Assembly (NCBI RefSeq): GCF_003334255.1
Contig: NZ_QOWU01000037.1
DNA: 51,502 bases
DNA from: Escherichia coli
GTDB taxonomy: Bacteria; Pseudomonadota; Gammaproteobacteria; Enterobacterales; Enterobacteriaceae
Reading direction: 5' to 3' (one strand)
The notes under the pieces: model-generated
Database searches by the model: none
Told to the model about the DNA's origin: nothing
The model's input: only the letters and a program-made list of their open reading frames with translations
Translations under genes and position numbers: made by a program
In this document: in pieces, positions 209 to 38,564 of the stretch
Layout of the letters: each line of letters begins with the position of its first letter
How positions within the stretch are numbered: the stretch's first letter is position 1

Positions 209-1078
<870 letters not shown>

Positions 1079-1135
1079 GTCTTTAAGTGATAAGCATAAA
1101 CCGCAGCACGATCTTGCATACGACGTGCTACGGTT

Positions 1136-1690
1136 TCATTTATCTCCGACCGGAAACTTCTTATACAGTGTCGATATACCAACATCATAGATGATCGCCA
1201 CCTTCTGGCGAGGAACGCCTGATGCAATTAATCGCCCGGCCTGCGCCCATTGTTCTGGTGTAAGTTTGGGACGACGTCCACCAATTCGTCCCTGTGCGCG
1301 AGCAGCCTCCAGTCCAGCTTTTGTTCGTTCAACAATCAGTTCTCGTTCCATTTCAGCCAGGGCCCCCATCACATGAAAGAAAAAACGCCCCATCGGTGTG
1401 CTGGTATCAATAGCATCCGTCAGGCTGCGAAAATTAACGCCACGTTCGCGCAACTCCTCAACCAGAATGACCAGATGCCGCATACTACGCCCCAGCCGCT
1501 CCAGCTTCCAGACAACCAGAGTGTCACCTGCCGATAATGTCCTGAGCAGTTTTTTCAGTCCCGGCCTTTCGGACTTTGTACCGCTTATCTTGTCTTCAAA
1601 AATCAGCTCGCATCCTGCACAGTTCAGCGCATTACGTTGTAGATCTGTGTTCTGGTCATTTGTTGACACACGTACATAGCCAATAAGCAT
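1136..1690 (-). CDS. pin: Serine DNA invertase, Pin/Gin/Hin family (ORF open to 1726; likely start MLIGYVRVS)
   Basis: N-terminal resolvase catalytic motif GYVRVSTNDQNTDLQ with Ser nucleophile, C-terminal HTH (GVPRQKVAIIYDVGISTLYKKF); 184 aa, typical of Gin/Hin/Pin. Confidence 0.9.
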   Translation of the reverse strand: MLIGYVRVSTNDQNTDLQRNALNCAGCELIFEDKISGTKSERPGLKKLLRTLSAGDTLVVWKLERLGRSMRHLVILVEELRERGVNFRSLTDAIDTSTPMGRFFFHVMGALAEMERELIVERTKAGLEAARAQGRIGGRRPKLTPEQWAQAGRLIASGVPRQKVAIIYDVGISTLYKKFPVGDK

Positions 1691-1744
1691 GGTAGATCTC
1701 CCTGACAAAAGCAGGAATGATGCCATTTGCTTGTTATTTCTGCA

Positions 1745-1770
1745 TTTTCATAAACGTTGGTTTGGGAGAA
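1745..1770. other. gix/hix-like 26-bp invertase crossover site (proximal to pin)
   Basis: TTTTCATAAACG TT GGTTTGGGAGAA; reverse complement TTCTCCCAAACC AA CGTTTATGAAAA matches the second site in 12/12 left-half positions and the central dinucleotide; resembles gix consensus TTATCCAAAACC TC GGTTTACAGGAA. Confidence 0.8.
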
Positions 1771-2130
1771 GCGGCAAGACGAAATGTGGGAACAGGGGAA
1801 AATCAGATACCGGACATGGCTTCATTTAGTGGGGTGAGGGATTATTACGGAAAACAACTTTTGCCAGGAGGGTTGATACTTCAGTGGCTGACGATTCCAT
1901 CAAGTGCAGCAGCCAACGCTGTAACACTGAATAATGGTAATTATCAGCTGTCAGGCTATAAATGGCCCCAGTCATTTGGTGTCCTGTTTGCTGTGTTTGC
2001 TACAAAAGTTTCTGGCTCGACTAACGAAGCATATGCAATCTCAGTTAATCGTCACTCTACCGATGTAATTGTCACCTGGAATGCCCGTAAGGCTGATGAT
2101 GTCCACATTTTAGGAATTGGGAAATTATGA
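1759..2130 (+). CDS. Alternative (currently silent) tail-fibre C-terminal variable cassette; becomes in-frame with the constant part after inversion
   Basis: ORF open through the crossover site in the frame required for fusion (position 1759 is codon position 1). Ends ...[19 protein letters not shown] with tfa gene immediately downstream. Confidence 0.65.
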
Positions 2131-2546
2131 AAATGAAATGGTCACCATCTGTTCAGGGATTTTTCTCTGAAAATAACAGCGATATTCCCGATGATGCTTT
2201 CGATATTGAAGATGCTCTTTATTATGAACTTATGAATGGTCAGAGTACGGGGAAAATTATTATCAATAACCCGGATAACTACCCTGTACTTACTGAATAT
2301 CCAGCGAAGACACAGGAACAGGAAATAGCTGAAGCGGAGGGAATGAAAAGTATACTTATTGAACAGGCCAACGAATACATGAACAGTAAGCAATGGCCTG
2401 GTAAAGCCGCTATTGGTCGTCTGAAAGGTGAGGAACTGGCGCAATATAATTTGTGGCTGGATTACCTGGACGCACTGGAACTGGTCGATACTTCCGGTGC
2501 GCCAGATATTGAATGGCCTACGCCTCCGGCAGTTCAGGCCAGATGA
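2127..2546 (+). CDS. Tail fibre assembly protein (alternate, U'-like)
   Basis: 139 aa; C-terminal tfa-family signature ...[27 protein letters not shown]; overlaps upstream fibre cassette stop (ATGA), converges on the other tfa. Confidence 0.65.
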
Positions 2547-2781
2547 CGTCCGGCGCGGTGCTGGTATCTGATTCCATCACCGCGTCGATATTACCAACAT
2601 CATATTCAGTCATTTCCGGTTCCGGTGGTGCTATAAACTCTCCGTCAGAATAGAACCAACCGACGCCTGCATCTATATGATCAATATTTATAATTTCGCA
2701 GTTAGAGAATAAATCACCCTCTCCATCCCAGATAATAATATTTTTCACCACGCCATGTTCAATCAGAGCAAAATTACTCAT
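2518..2781 (-). CDS. Tail fibre assembly protein (expressed orientation, U-like)
   Basis: 87 aa directly downstream of (overlapping by ATGA) the fibre gene; C-terminal ...[15 protein letters not shown] resembles the tfa C-terminal motif of the opposite cassette. Confidence 0.6.
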   Translation of the reverse strand: MSNFALIEHGVVKNIIIWDGEGDLFSNCEIINIDHIDAGVGWFYSDGEFIAPPEPEMTEYDVGNIDAVMESDTSTAPDVIWPELPEA

Positions 2782-3764
2782 CAGGCATACTCCTCAACAA
2801 TAACTATTCCCGGGGCACCGTCACCTCCCGATTGAGCCTCACTTCCGGCAGGTGCGCAGGCTCCGCCTCCGCCAGCACCAAAGCCCTCAGCTTTACCACC
2901 ACCACGTCCGCTGAATGATGAAGAACTTGCACCACCTATACCGCCTGAACCTAGTGGTGTATCCCCCCCGGTACCACCTGCAACAGCTTTAACAGAGATA
3001 ACCATTGCTCCTGGTGTTTTTGCACTACAGCGAAATGCTCTTAGTACAGTACCGGACGATGTCGGACTGGCACCCCATGAAATACCCTGAATATATGATG
3101 TGTTTGCAGATGCTCCCCCCGCGCCACCGCCTGTACCACCCGGTGCAGTTATCAGGGAACCGAAATAAGTTGTGCCACCTTCACTACCTGAATTTCTTCC
3201 GGCTCCCCCCCCTTTACCTGCAGCACCGATAATAACGTTGACTTCGAAATCATTATCAACCTCGAAAAATGCTTCAATAAATGCACCGCTCAATCCAGCT
3301 CCGGCTGTTGCCTGCTGATTTTCTGTTGTTTCAGGAACCCCACCGCCGCCGCCACCGCCACCAGAGGCAATGACCCTTATCTTTTTTGTCCCTGGTGTTG
3401 GGATATATTTTCCAGAGCTTTTAAAAATATTCGTGTTTAACAAACGACCAGAGAATCTGGCTTCTCCCAAACCAAGGTTTTCGAGAGCCGTTTGCACAGT
3501 GCCATCCGATTTGATATCGCCAAACGGATTCTTGCGGCTTAACAGCAGCGCACGAAGTGCGGTAAGCATCTGGTCATGCCGCCCTTTCTCCAGGCTGGCA
3601 CCGGAGGCCTCCACCACGCTACAAAGTTCTTCCTGCAACATGTCAAAGTAGTCATCATCCAGATCGGTGGCAGGTGTGCCGGTCTGGGGGTTACCACGGG
3701 TAAAACCGTTCTTACCCGCGCCGAACTTATCCTTCTGCGCGGTTTTCGTGTCTATACGATGCAT
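2781..3764 (-). CDS. Tail fibre protein (Mu S/gp49-like), Gly-rich; constant part 3476..3764, variable part 2781..3473
   Basis: 327 aa with poly-Gly/collagen-like runs (GGGGGGGG, GGTGGGAGGA); contains crossover site; position after gp48-like gene. Confidence 0.8.
3462..3487. other. gix/hix-like 26-bp invertase crossover site inside the tail-fibre gene
   Basis: TTCTCCCAAACC AA GGTTTTCGAGAG, an imperfect palindrome inverted relative to the site at 1745-1770. Confidence 0.8.
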
Positions 3765-3767
3765 GGA

Positions 3768-4352
3768 TTACTCCGGATATTTAAAAATTACGTAGGTATG
3801 CGAAGGGCAGAGTTTGTTAAGCACGCACTCGACAACGGTGTCGCCCCAGATACGCAGTGCGGAATCACAGGGATCGCCACATGTCATCCAGGTGGTGTTG
3901 GTGGCGGCTGGCATGTTGACCTGCCAGTAATACCGCCATTCCGGCGCATTCACTGCGTCAGTACAGGCCGATGAGCAGGTGAACGTGCTTTTATCGTATC
4001 GCGTGATAGTGGCGTCTGGTCTGCCCAGGGCAGCAAGCTGTGCAAGGTAAAAATCCTCATTGATGCCGCCCGCCAGATTAACCTTCGCATCCAGCCGTTG
4101 CTGACGCTGGCGAAGGGTCTGTGTCCCTGCGGGAATACATTCATCCGGCAGACCGCACAGACGCTCCCAGCGGTTTATCAGTTCAGTGGTGGTGCGCGGA
4201 TCCAGCTCCCGCATCAGGGCATCCGCACGCTGATGAACGCGGGTTAATGAAGGTGCCGCACCGGCAATCGCCGGATCGCTGGCTGACCATGCAGGACCGG
4301 GCGGCAACAGTGCCGATAACAGGCGGATGTAATCATCGTTTGTCACGTCCAT
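3768..4352 (-). CDS. Phage tail protein, Mu gp48-like (DUF2313 / YmfQ-like)
   Basis: 194 aa; synteny between baseplate J and fibre as in Mu/e14. Confidence 0.7.
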
Positions 4353-5401
4353 GAAATCGTCCCCAGAACCGCCAGTTCATTTTTTGCAATGGAGATATTG
4401 TCCGCCGGGGCAAGCAACTGATGGCTGTATTCCCCGTTCGCACCGGAAATCGCCTCACTGATACGCGATACCTTCAGTTCTCCCTGAGGATAACCATCAC
4501 GCAGCAGGAACGAACGCAACTCTGCGGTGATGGCAGCCCGTATTTCCGGTGTGTCCGGCGTCACGCGGATATGAAAATCCACTTTATGCGCCACCGGCCT
4601 GAATACATACAAATCAGAGCCTGCCACCGGGGCCAGTGGCTCAATGTGTTGTCTTGCCGCCGTTTCCGTTGATTCTTCCGGAATGGGATTAATCAGGTCA
4701 CTGCTGGCAATCATCACACCGACAGTTCCCGTTCCCATCCAGTGACGGTATGTCCATGCGCGGGTAATGCCGGGCACTTCTTTAGCCCAGACGACATAGT
4801 CCACGTCAGCCCCGCCCTGCGGCGTCCAGTAATACCGCTCAATGATGCGGGCGCGCCACGTTTCCAGATCTTCAGTATCAAATCCGCCTGTCAGGGTGTC
4901 AGCCACACCGGAAGACGGCAGACCATTCACCGGCGTGACCAGGATTAATGACGTACCGTCGTCAGCGTTACCGACCGCGCCTGAACTTGAGCAGGCGATC
5001 GGCACGCGCAGGACACCACCGGAGCTGGTTGCATCGGCAGTTGCCGTGTACTGAACCAGGTCATCGCGCTGAATAACACTCCCGGCGGTCACCTTCAGGC
5101 CATCGCTGACACCTTCCCAGCGCATATACCCGCTGGCAGCCGTGGCCCCCTTGCGCGGACACCGTTTCATCGCAGCATGTCGCGCCAGCCAGGACTCATC
5201 GCACAGGTCAGGCAGCATGTTCATTGCCAGATAATCGATGTAACCGTAAACCGTATGCAGCGCCGCCGCATACACCTTTGCCCGCACGTCTTCATCCATG
5301 CGCCGGAGCGTGTCGCTGACGTCCAGCCTGGCGAATAAATCGTTACGGAGCATACTGATATTTTCTGCCAGCGTCGGGCGCTGAAATTCACTGTCCGCCA
5401 T
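4343..5401 (-). CDS. Baseplate J-like protein (Mu gp47-like)
   Basis: 352 aa; conserved synteny and overlaps with neighbours. Confidence 0.75.
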
Positions 5402-6361: not shown

Positions 6362-7440
6362 CAGAACGGGTCCTCCTGTACTCTGGCTTTTTTCTTTTTC
6401 CGCGCGCCGGGGGCTTCGGGTTCAGGCAGATAAGCATCAGGCGGGCCGACACGGATTTCCGTCAGGGTGCCGTTCTGGTCCTGAGTAAACGTGACTTCCG
6501 AAACAAGCAGTTCGGTATTGTCGAAACCACAGACCGGATCAAAGACAATCACCCGCTGGTTGGGCTGCCACAGCGTACCGTTACCCTGTCGCCAGCCCTG
6601 CACCACATAGGTGGTTTCATCCGTCCGCGCCGCCCGTTGTCGGGCTTCAAAGTCCGCACGGGCAATACAACCTGCCCCCGTAGCCTGCCCTGTCTGCCTG
6701 ATATACATCGGACGGTAACGGGCAATAAATGCGTCCTCTGTGCGGGCCCGCAGCGCGGTGGTGGTGGCCTCACCGAAATCATCGTCGTTCCCGGCACGCT
6801 GCCCCGCCACCTGGTAAACAGAAAATCGCTCCCGGATACTCTTCTCCGTATCGCAGGAAAGGATGTTTTCCCCGAGTACCAGCGCGGTATGTGCCCGCGT
6901 TGAGCCAATACCGCCAATCACCAGCCTGCCGTGCGGGTCGTCGTAAGCCAGTGCCTGCTGCTGACCGAGTATTTTGTTGATTACCTCAATCACCGTTTCA
7001 CCGTGATCAGGCTGAACATCAGGAATAACACCCGACGGCGCACCGCTGTTCACCACCTCAATGCCGAAAGGCGCAGCAAGCGCCTGCGCAATCTGCACCA
7101 GCGAGCGTCCGTTAAACTGTGTCGGTTCGGCTGCACAGTCAATCAGGTCAGCCGTCAGACTACGTCCGGCAATACCGGTGCTGACCGAACGGGCATCGTA
7201 ACGAACGGGAGTCGCCTCCACCCAGCCGGTGATCACCAGCTCATCACCAATCAGCACTTCCACTTTTGAACCGTTTCTAATGCGCGGCTGAAGCGTGGTG
7301 ATACCCTCATCTCCCGGCCACTGGCGAGTGATCTCCACACTGAAATCCCGCGCCAGCCGTTCAATACCGGCACCGATGCGCACCGATGTCCAGCCATTCC
7401 ACTCCCGGCCATTTACCCGTAGCGTGACATTGTCGTTCAT
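6361..7440 (-). CDS. Tail/baseplate hub protein, Mu P (gp44)-like
   Basis: 359 aa; ATGA-coupled to V-like gene. Confidence 0.65.
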   Translation of the reverse strand: MNDNVTLRVNGREWNGWTSVRIGAGIERLARDFSVEITRQWPGDEGITTLQPRIRNGSKVEVLIGDELVITGWVEATPVRYDARSVSTGIAGRSLTADLIDCAAEPTQFNGRSLVQIAQALAAPFGIEVVNSGAPSGVIPDVQPDHGETVIEVINKILGQQQALAYDDPHGRLVIGGIGSTRAHTALVLGENILSCDTEKSIRERFSVYQVAGQRAGNDDDFGEATTTALRARTEDAFIARYRPMYIRQTGQATGAGCIARADFEARQRAARTDETTYVVQGWRQGNGTLWQPNQRVIVFDPVCGFDNTELLVSEVTFTQDQNGTLTEIRVGPPDAYLPEPEAPGARKKKKARVQEDPF

Positions 7441-23778: not shown

Positions 23779-24861
23779 ATGAAAAAATTAACAGTGGCAA
23801 TTTCTGCTGTAGCTGCATCAGTACTGATGGCGATGTCTGCTCAGGCAGCTGAAATTTATAATAAAGACAGTAACAAGCTGGATCTGTACGGGAAAGTTAA
23901 TGCTAAGCACTACTTCTCCTCTAATGATGCAGATGATGGTGATACTACTTATGCCCGTCTTGGCTTCAAAGGTGAAACCCAAATCAACGATCAACTGACT
24001 GGTTTCGGTCAGTGGGAATATGAATTCAAAGGCAACCGCGCTGAATCTCAAGGTTCCTCCAAAGATAAAACCCGTCTTGCCTTCGCTGGCCTGAAATTCG
24101 GTGACTACGGCTCCATCGATTACGGCCGTAACTACGGTGTAGCATACGACATCGGTGCGTGGACTGACGTCCTGCCAGAATTCGGTGGTGACACTTGGAC
24201 TCAAACAGATGTGTTCATGACTGGTCGCACCACTGGTGTTGCAACTTATCGTAACAACGACTTCTTTGGTCTGGTTGATGGTCTGAACTTTGCTGCTCAG
24301 TATCAGGGTAAAAATGACCGCACTGACGTAACTGAAGCTAATGGTGATGGTTTCGGTTTCTCCACTACTTATGAGTATGAAGGATTCGGTGTAGGTGCAA
24401 CCTATGCTAAATCTGATCGCACTAATAATCAGGTTATCTACGGTAACAACGGTCTGAATGCTTCTGGTCAAAATGCTGAAGTATGGGCAGCTGGTCTGAA
24501 ATATGATGCGAACAACATCTATCTGGCCACCACCTATTCTGAAACCCAGAACATGACTGTTTTTGGTAATAACCATATTGCCAACAAAGCACAAAACTTC
24601 GAAGCTGTTGCACAATATCAGTTCGACTTCGGCCTGCGTCCATCCGTTGCTTACCTGCATTCTAAAGGAAAAGACTTGGGTGTTTGGGGTGATCAGGACC
24701 TGGTTGAATATGTTGATGTAGGTGCAACCTATTACTTCAACAAAAATATGTCCACTTTTGTTGACTACAAAATCAACCTGATTGATAAGAGCGATTTCAC
24801 GAAAGCATCTGGCGTTGCTACCGATGATATCGTTGCTGTAGGTATGGTTTACCAGTTCTAA
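23779..24861 (+). CDS. Prophage-encoded OmpC-family general porin (Lc/NmpC-like lysogenic-conversion gene)
   Basis: 360 aa, signal peptide AMSAQA, ...[17 protein letters not shown]..., C-terminal VAVGMVYQF. Lies between Q and S on the opposite strand, exactly as nmpC in DLP12 and lc in PA-2. Confidence 0.9.
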
Positions 24862-37112: not shown

Positions 37113-37434
37113 GGCCTGTCAGTTTCTCAAGATATCCAGACCTACCGCTACCAACTGGATACGAACAGGCCGCCTACAGGCAACACGCAAAGACCCCACT
37201 AAACCAAAATCTCCTTACCTCACAACGCGACAAGCCTGCATTGCGGCGCTTCAGTCTCCGCTGCATACTATCAAGGTGAGCGCGGGTGATGGCATAACAG
37301 AGGAAAGAAAATGTCACTCTTCCGCAGAGGTGAAATATGGTACGCCAGTTTCACATTGCCGAACGGTAAAAGATTTAAACAGTCTCTTGGAACAAAGGAC
37401 AAAAGGCAGGCGACAGAACTCCATGACAAGCTAA
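37084..37434 (+). CDS. xis: Excisionase-like DNA-binding protein (xis); 3' end overlaps int
   Basis: [34 protein letters not shown] typical of Xis/AlpA-like proteins; AGAGG SD; C-terminal extent uncertain. Confidence 0.55.
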
Positions 37435-38474
37435 AGGCTGAAGCATGGCGGGTCAGCAAACTTGGTGAAATACCTGATATAACGTTCGAGGAAGCGTGTG
37501 TCAGGTGGCTTGAAGAGAAAGCACATAAAAAATCACTGGACGATGACAAAAGCCGGATCGGATTCTGGCTTCAACATTTCGCAGGAATGCAACTAAGAGA
37601 CATTACTGAATCAAAAATTTATTCAGCAATGCAGAAAATGACGAACCGGCGTCATGAGGAAAACTGGAAACTCAGGGCAGAAGCATGCAGAAAAAAAGGG
37701 AAACCTGTTCCAGAATACACGCCAAAACCAGCGTCCGTTGCAACGAAGGCTACGCATCTTTCATTTATAAAGGCCCTACTAAGAGCCGCAGAGCGTGAAT
37801 GGAAAATGCTGGATAAGGCACCAATTATTAAAGTGCCTCAACCAAAGAATAAACGGATCCGCTGGCTGGAGCCCCATGAAGCACAAAGGCTGATTGATGA
37901 ATGTCCGGAGCCATTAAAGTCTGTTGTTGAATTTGCACTGGCAACAGGCTTAAGACGCTCGAACATCATCAACCTTGAATGGCAACAAATAGATATGCAG
38001 CGCCGGGTGGCATGGATAAACCCGGAAGAGAGTAAATCAAACCGCGCAATCGGCGTTGCGCTGAATGATACTGCATGTCGCGTTTTGAAAAAACAAATCG
38101 GGAATCATCACCGTTGGGTATTTGTGTACAAGGAAAGCTGTACCAAACCAGACGGAACGAAAGCGCCAACAGTAAGGAAGATGCGGTATGACGCAAACAC
38201 AGCCTGGAAAGCAGCGCTGAGGCGGGCTGGTATTGATGATTTCAGATTTCACGACTTGAGACACACCTGGGCAAGTTGGCTGGTTCAAGCCGGAGTCCCG
38301 TTGTCAGTGTTACAGGAAATGGGAGGCTGGGAGTCTATCGAAATGGTTCGTCGATATGCTCACCTTGCACCTAATCACCTTACCGAACACGCACGGCAAA
38401 TAGACTCGATCCTGAACCCATCGGTCCCAAATTCGTCCCAGTCAAAAAATAAGGAAGGTACTAATGATGTGTAA
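37311..38474 (+). CDS. int: Tyrosine integrase (thrW-specific, SfV/e14-like family)
   Basis: 387 aa; catalytic residues R...[15 protein letters not shown]...VRRYAHL (RHRY motif); stop 14 nt from tRNA 3' end. Confidence 0.9.
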
Positions 38475-38488
38475 CTTATTGATTTAAA

Positions 38489-38564
38489 TGGTGCCGATAA
38501 TAGGAGTCGAACCTACGACCTTCGCATTACGAATGCGCTGCTCTACCAACTGAGCTATATCGGC
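38489..38564 (-). tRNA. thrW: tRNA-Thr (anticodon CGU), thrW; phage attachment site
   Basis: GCCGATATAGCTCAGTTGGTAGAGCAGCGCATTCGTAATGCGAAGGTCGTAGGTTCGACTCCTATTATCGGCACCA; cloverleaf with CGT anticodon and encoded CCA. Confidence 0.9.

Follow-up and report, generated by a model that had tools for sequence, protein, structure and literature searches.

A probable e14-family tail fiber inversion switch with a different cassette pair in an SfV/SfIV-like Escherichia coli prophage

Introduction

The closest described relative of the locus reported here is the P segment of e14, the defective prophage at icd in Escherichia coli K-12, which together with its invertase PinE reportedly goes back to the 1985 study of Plasterk and van de Putte. 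Experiments have shown the P segment to be inverted by PinE, PinQ, and PinR, to phase-vary in culture, and to be present in both orientations within single cultures (PMC12529663; PMC4272514). The present locus lies at positions 1136 to 3764 of a 51,502-nucleotide stretch of E. coli DNA (contig NZ_QOWU01000037.1 of assembly GCF_003334255.1), the whole of which is referred to below as the window. It comprises a tail fiber gene reading into an invertible segment of about 1.7 kb, two alternative fiber tips with their assembly genes inside that segment, and a serine DNA invertase gene, pin, just outside it. Because the site sequences are the same as those of e14, with the published e14 repeat forming their core, the locus is very probably a P-segment switch of the e14 family, within the Gin/Pin/Cin/Hin class, that carries other cassettes. 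The mechanism is textbook, the exact module is already present in RefSeq genomes, and no new question about inversion is opened. What is new is the cassette pair only, that is, a Pam3-like tip with a shortened chaperone on one side and a StfP-like tip with a canonical Tfa on the other; no description of this pair was found in the literature searched.

The same architecture is known from the G segment of phage Mu with its invertase Gin and from the C segment of P1 with Cin. There, as here, the segment excludes the constant N-terminus and holds two variable C-termini in opposite orientations, each with its own assembly gene, the sites are 26 bp long, and the invertase gene sits just outside the segment with an enhancer in its 5′ end (a candidate one in the present case). 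The Mu system differs in the size of its segment (~3 kb), in its constant part of ~170 codons and its long S/S′ fibers, in its unrelated cassettes, in the center of its gix sites (TC/GA as opposed to TT/AA here), and in its invertase, Pin being 77% identical to Gin (140/181 residues). The Hin/H segment of Salmonella has an invertase of the same subfamily, a 26-bp site, and an AA/TT center, but Hin flips a promoter, whereas it is coding sequence that is swapped here. In the Hin and Gin systems, the 5′ end of the recombinase gene contains an enhancer to which Fis binds. For the Hin system, the location of this enhancer within the recombinase gene is also documented in the literature (PMC3798978).

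Crossover sites and reading frames

The pin-proximal crossover site, site A (1745-1770), reads TTTTCATAAACG TT GGTTTGGGAGAA, and site B (3462-3487), which lies inside the fiber gene and codes for ...ENLGLGE, reads TTCTCCCAAACC AA GGTTTTCGAGAG. As inverted copies the two are equal at 21 of 26 positions, and their cores match, with TT at 1757-1758 and AA at 3474-3475, as in the paired sites of Gin, Pin, Cin, and Hin systems. The first-pass annotation of this DNA had proposed both the inverted pair and its AA/TT centers, and both proposals are borne out. Its statement that the outer 12-bp halves are identical is wrong, since the identical halves (1759-1770 and 3462-3473) are the inner ones, within the segment, and the two outer halves differ. 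The half-sites of A and B fit the 12-2-12 invertase pattern TTnTCnnAAACC, as do those of the Mu gix sites. A repeat finder gave 1752-1772 / 3460-3480 (21 nt, 20/21 or 95% complementary) as the longest inverted repeat of the 3-kb region. When the 51.5-kb window was searched with a 17-base site pattern at up to three mismatches, only sites A and B were returned, against 0.19 chance matches expected and with 0 of 100 shuffles reaching 3; the pair is therefore unique in the window at this threshold, and no additional crossover sites, as a multi-cassette Min- or shufflon-like system would have, were found there.

The invertible segment between the two sites measures about 1717 bp, and the invertase gene lies 55 bp from site A. 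The constant N-terminal fiber part (3476-3764, minus strand, 96 codons) is baseplate-proximal and belongs to the same operon as the Mu gp48-like gene (3768-4352) and the Baseplate_J gene that directly precede it. In the orientation of the window it runs into the expressed variable cassette (2781-3473, minus strand), a 230-codon glycine-rich fiber tip matching Gly_rich_2 (PF21722, E = 3.1e-7), and together they form a glycine-rich open reading frame (ORF) of 327 residues (3764..2781). An 87-residue ORF for a shortened Tfa-like protein (2518-2781, minus strand) lies downstream and overlaps the fiber stop. The silent variable cassette (1759-2130, plus strand) is a short tip of 123 codons (phrog_2557, E = 2.8e-33), and its own assembly gene, tfa′ (2127-2546, plus strand), overlaps the cassette stop via ATGA.

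Turning the DNA in silico between the central dinucleotides of sites A and B replaced the 327-residue fiber by an in-frame 220-residue fiber ORF with its stop at 2130, and each of the two fiber ORFs is coupled to its downstream gene by an overlapping stop and start. The coordinates, frames, and junction peptides put forward earlier for both fiber versions are right. Either orientation of the segment thus offers the baseplate operon an intact, in-frame fiber with an assembly protein, as in the Mu G segment, one of the two assembly proteins being shortened to 87 residues.

Both orientations in other genomes

E. coli G1/2 (NZ_CP060083) has the same prophage end. Its alignment with the window as given falls into three parts, interrupted at 1752-1772 and 3460-3480, that is, at sites A and B, whereas the in silico inverted window aligns with it colinearly over a single stretch of 7480 bp at 99.97% identity. 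The predicted 220-residue fusion is the annotated protein WP_047660169.1 of G1/2, residue for residue, and the alternative frame into 1759..2130, which had been read as open from the window alone, is open in an existing genome as well. Two further genomes, G8 and G6/7, are inverted like G1/2, and NZ_LR882050 has the same orientation as the window. Among 5,426 complete E. coli genomes, 3 have the constant-to-glycine-rich junction and 12 have the constant-to-short one. As judged by comparison between genomes, the segment occurs naturally in both states, and the breakpoints coincide exactly with the sites.

Comparison with the e14 P segment

Both 26-bp sites have the same sequence in K-12 e14, where site A corresponds to 6606-6631 and site B to 4779-4804 of our comparison locus L003, and the inverted repeat published for e14, TTGGTTTGGGAGAAGG (PMC12529663), is the core of both sites here. 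The features that define the P-segment family, namely the core TTGGTTTGGGAGAAG, a StfP-type N-terminus after a ymfQ/Mu gp48-like gene, and an adjacent pinE, are all found. The gene order of K-12, ymfQ-stfP-tfaP><tfaE-stfE-pinE, is likewise kept. DNA identity is 96.5% through the constant fiber part, the protein product of which differs from StfP at one residue, stops at 3461, and resumes at 1771 to continue through pin at 92%. The convergent tfa ends overlap by 29 bp in both loci, and both have the same 14-residue pin-proximal leader ORF (StfE).

The differences are concentrated between the sites. Both cassettes are different, K-12 having StfP/TfaP and StfE/TfaE, and the only part of the segment interior held in common is a 199-bp island (2391-2589, 85% identity) at the overlapping 3′ ends of tfaP and tfaE. 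The segment is about 1717 bp long here as opposed to 1797 bp in K-12. Outside the segment, the neighbor of pin is a PD-T4-3 gene rather than mcrA, Pin carries the substitution D64E, and the element, located at tRNA-Thr, is to all appearances a complete SfV-like prophage, whereas e14 is defective and located at icd.

The expressed cassette and its chaperone

An AlphaFold model of the 327-residue fiber, built on a 43-sequence alignment, has a mean predicted local distance difference test score (pLDDT) of 78; within residues 111-327 most 10-residue blocks average above 90 (range 71-98). The best match of the model among PDB structures is the fiber of cyanophage Pam3 (7ypx_A, E = 7.6e-9), followed by mycobacteriophage Bxb1 tail-tip proteins and then by the TNF-like/glycine-rich (TG) domains of ALK/LTK. 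The expressed tip is modeled as a TNF-like plus glycine-rich fold of the Pam3 kind. The Pam3 fiber, gp24, consists of an N-terminal helical part and a TNF-like and glycine-rich receptor-binding tip (PDB 7YPX; PMC9608196), a division that the model here reproduces, and in both phages a small Tfa-related gene follows the fiber gene. Sequence identity between the two fibers is ~20%, and the Pam3 fiber, unlike the present one, is not invertible. Compared with a 96%-identical copy in locus L016, the fiber shows 17 synonymous and 5 non-synonymous codon differences, a ratio that speaks for purifying selection. PDB sequence searches with both fiber forms returned marginal matches to the N-terminal part of Mu fiber S (E about 0.07-0.2), which were not used.

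Two tfa genes had been named in the first-pass annotation, and the name is appropriate for one of them. The tfa′ product, a tail fiber assembly chaperone of 139 residues, is canonical (Caudo_TAP, E = 2.6e-23; phrog_188, E = 2.3e-51), whereas the 87-residue protein is shortened and atypical. Its Caudo_TAP match covers the last 19 residues only and scores 17.3 bits against a cut-off of 22.1, which leaves it outside the family by that measure. Its N-terminal 56 residues match phrog_14370, and in pairwise alignment the protein is 52% identical to its nearest longer relative, P0006, a 132-residue Caudo_TAP protein of locus L011, from which it differs by the absence of ~45 central residues. Caudo_TAP proteins of 119-132 residues follow other Gly_rich_2 fibers. 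Taken together, these alignments identify the 87-residue protein as a shortened member of the chaperone lineage, evidently a Tfa relative with an internal deletion. An AlphaFold model of it (5-sequence alignment, pLDDT 54.5, strands in residues 1-50 only) was unusable for a fold search, and a codon-difference (dN/dS) check was uninformative, with a single synonymous difference over codons 1-70 and all others within the tfa′ overlap. The Pam3 counterpart, the Tfa-like chaperone gp25, binds the fiber through an N-terminal β-sandwich and trimerizes through C-terminal helices (PMC9608196); the central region corresponding to this helical trimerization domain is absent from the 87-residue protein. 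As a side observation, locus L011 (1104-2487) is a non-invertible SfV-like prophage in which a related 327-residue glycine-rich fiber (tip ~50% identical) is followed by the 132-residue Tfa and then an integrase, with no pin.

The silent cassette

The silent tip aligns with K-12 StfP and with the fiber of phage 720R4, its relation to StfP being only a distant one, and its Pfam match to Gp53-like_C is weak and below threshold. On these alignments the silent tip may be described as a short domain similar to the gp53-like tip of StfP. The baseplate genes have a GC content of 54-61%, as opposed to 38-47% over the short cassette and tfa′, a drop that fits horizontally acquired cassettes.

Set against known fiber domains, the two variable parts thus fall in different places, the expressed one with the Pam3 fiber 7ypx_A and the silent one with the StfP and 720R4 tips. 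The suggestion that they confer two very different receptor specificities is supported at the level of predicted fold (Pam3-like versus gp53-like StfP-type), and at that level only.

Pin and the proposed inversion

The pin gene (1136-1690, minus strand) encodes a PinE-type serine DNA invertase of 184 residues (Resolvase, E = 5.8e-51; HTH_7, E = 5e-13). The ATG at 1690 is the probable start, homologs beginning with MLIGYVRVST; a mechanical list of ORFs had given an upstream ATG at 1726. The protein is 94.6% identical to K-12 PinE (174/184 residues) and has the properties of a small serine recombinase, namely a length within ~180-190 residues, the catalytic serine (Ser9) in a YxRVST motif, here GYVRVST, and a C-terminal helix-turn-helix. 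R65 and R68 are present, and one conserved pocket residue is altered (D64E).

The first 150 nt of pin are identical to K-12 pinE at 147 positions (98%) and to Mu gin at 109 (73%). Within this 5′ end, two 15-mers of the form G-N13-C lie at 1669-1655 and 1620-1606. On the strength of this homology and of what is known of Hin and Gin, the stretch 1606-1669 (minus strand) is a candidate Fis-bound recombinational enhancer. The first-pass annotation had suggested a search for an enhancer in this part of pin; the 15-mers and the match to pinE are there, and the part played by Fis comes from homology.

From these elements the following mechanism can be proposed. The fiber gene is split, with codons 1-96 (3764-3476) fixed and the remainder, together with a cognate assembly protein, carried on the 1.7-kb segment. 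In the present orientation the late operon would produce the 327-residue fiber with its Pam3-like tip and then the 87-residue Tfa-like protein. Pin dimers bound at both sites would meet the Fis-bound enhancer in 5′ pin, cleave at the central TT/AA, and bring about strand rotation. In the inverted state the same N-terminus would be joined at ...NLGLGEA to a 118-residue tip of the gp53-like type, followed by the canonical 139-residue Tfa, and a population of lysogens would release two kinds of virion with differing receptor specificities. Within this scheme, the dependence on Fis and the enhancer, the switching rate, the receptors, and the activity of Pin D64E are points that we infer.

Is the switch active?

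The locus had been called a complete Gin/Pin-type switch. All parts are indeed present and properly arranged, but complete does not mean active, given the private D64E allele of Pin, and several observations weigh against a switch that works in this strain. In codon 64 of pin (window 1499-1501), the GAT (Asp) of G1/2 and K-12 is replaced by GAG (Glu), a single-base change. Residue 64 is Asp in 119 of 120 homolog cluster representatives and Glu in none, none of the 2,283 pin-matching complete E. coli genomes carries the D64E allele, and no complete E. coli genome contains an exact match to the 121 bp around the codon (best, 99.2%). The residue is equivalent to D67 of Tn3/γδ resolvase, and in Tn3 resolvase the substitutions D67A and D67N abolished resolution in vivo and lowered cleavage to ~0.017 of the wild-type rate, that is, ~60-fold (PMC2794168). 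Because the allele is private, the activity of Pin in cis is unproven. A consensus scan of 1000-4000 for promoters and terminators returned none above shuffled expectation (5 promoters against 4.6 expected). The evidence on orientation is a comparison between genomes. Finally, because the 87-residue chaperone is without the region that forms the helical trimerization domain of Pam3 gp25, maturation of the expressed fiber is not assured.

One alternative is that the switch is structurally complete but locked, with D64E crippling Pin and the glycine-rich orientation fixed unless another invertase acts in trans, a state of affairs that we regard as possible, if doubtful. The substitution does affect an active-site residue that hardly ever varies, none of the relatives surveyed has it, the resolvase mutants at the equivalent position do lose activity in vivo, and a second invertase gene is not found within the 51.5-kb window. 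However, the authors of the resolvase study judged the D67 side chain non-essential for catalysis, its carboxylate being in contact with R68 (PMC2794168), and because Glu retains the carboxylate, a mild effect of D64E on Pin is plausible. Moreover, PinQ, PinR, and PinE cross-act on e14 sites (PMC12529663), most of the E. coli genomes that match the region contain about two matching places (a median of 2 per genome), and the change, being a single base, could be recent or a sequencing error.

A second alternative concerns who benefits from the switch. A predicted pin-proximal ORF (1717-2130, plus strand) carries a 14-residue leader with its ATG from the pin-proximal flank across site A into the silent cassette, so placed that it is in frame with whichever cassette is silent, and K-12 StfE has the same leader, ATG included. 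In K-12, StfE2, which consists of this leader and the gp53-like StfP tip, lowered adsorption of phage T2 when produced, although it was produced from a plasmid (PMC12529663, 2025). The window shows the corresponding arrangement, the leader being joined to a short tip of StfP type, and a known defense gene, PD-T4-3, adjoins pin. The switch might then serve the lysogen too, or instead, by expressing the leader and silent cassette as a protein that blocks the receptors of other phages. We consider this unlikely: neither a promoter (in the consensus scan of 1000-4000) nor a convincing ribosome-binding site was found for the leader ORF, the cassette is related to StfP only distantly, and the prophage looks complete, so that a role in virion host range suffices to explain the locus. 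Somewhat more of a long shot still is the combined proposal that the 87-residue protein is a minimal chaperone, made of a fiber-binding N-domain and the conserved C-tail and free of a helical trimerization domain, that matures the glycine-rich fiber, and that the leader ORF turns the silent cassette into a receptor blocker. If true, it would mean a new minimal class of fiber chaperone and a single switch toggling both virion host range and host defense.

That the repeats are incidental and the two orientations are products of rare RecA-dependent recombination, an idea for which a comparison between genomes leaves some room, is hardly credible and was rejected, because the shared repeat is only 21 bp, the sites fit the half-site pattern TTnTCnnAAACC like Mu gix and are the same as the experimentally used e14 sites, the invertase gene is 55 bp away, and one junction motif joins the glycine-rich cassette to at least 8 unrelated fiber N-termini.

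A programmed P-segment inversion is the reading we retain, and its setting lends the locus some practical interest. It is a clean natural example of an e14 switch in an apparently intact SfV-like prophage, e14 itself being defective, and because the prophage is apparently intact, it could be used to measure the benefit of a P-segment switch to a viable phage. Two small oddities, the private D64E allele and the shortened chaperone, are open to test.

Prophage context and spread of the module

Between 3460 and ~21 kb the window matches the structural modules of the Shigella phages SfIV, SfII, SfI, and SfV and of Escherichia phage vB_EcoM-720R4 at 97-98% identity, with the crossover site as the starting point of every alignment. 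None of the large structural ORFs is interrupted. Beyond the structural module are found a lysozyme gene, λ-type O and P genes, and genes for a CI-like repressor, RecT, YqaJ, and an integrase, the last of which (37311-38474) abuts tRNA-Thr(CGT) (38489-38564). By its gene content the element looks like an apparently complete SfV/SfIV-like temperate myovirus prophage at tRNA-Thr, with the switch at the end of its late operon. A second copy of the attachment site (tRNA-Thr 3′ end) was not found in 1-400 of the window, and the pin-side end of the prophage is undefined within it. In the related loci L001 and L002, a transposase or insertion sequence remnant and an AraC-family gene are seen at the pin-side end.

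The constant fiber part is present in ~1,900 E. coli genomes, and homology to them ends at 3460/3461, as it does with the SfV-family phages. An identical glycine-rich cassette is fused to at least 8 unrelated N-termini, in fibers of 288-389 residues, and the join is always the site-encoded (N/Y)LGLGEA. Because one cassette is joined at LGLGEA to so many unrelated N-termini, the crossover site acts as a universal adaptor for the horizontal exchange of fiber tips. The whole module, from the two cassettes with their assembly genes to the invertase, also occurs in a different myovirus backbone. In loci L006-L009 (e.g., L006, 5001-7677) the module consists of a glycine-rich fiber, the 87-residue ORF, the 139-residue Tfa, a 136-residue ORF of the silent cassette, and the 184-residue invertase; the backbone there is marked by Sheath_initiator, a 399-residue Baseplate_J protein, and Phage_Wedge1, and the fiber, of 343 residues, has another N-terminus.

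In RefSeq, the constant part at L002 (5363-5665) and at L016 (4604-4906) is called "stfP, incomplete, missing C-terminus", and the 327-residue fiber is left uncalled. The 327-residue glycine-rich ORF is open in L016, and the "incomplete stfP" call is an annotation artefact of naming by K-12.

Two further genes of the window deserve mention. The gene beside pin (305-1078, plus strand) encodes a 257-residue GIY-YIG (LEM-3-like) protein with a full-length match to PD-T4-3 (PADLOC, E = 2.4e-140) and occupies the place that mcrA has in e14. The prophage also carries, between its lysis and early regions, a gene (23779-24861, plus strand) for a 360-residue Gram-negative porin (Porin_1, E = 3e-152), which has the look of an nmpC/lc-type gene for lysogenic conversion.

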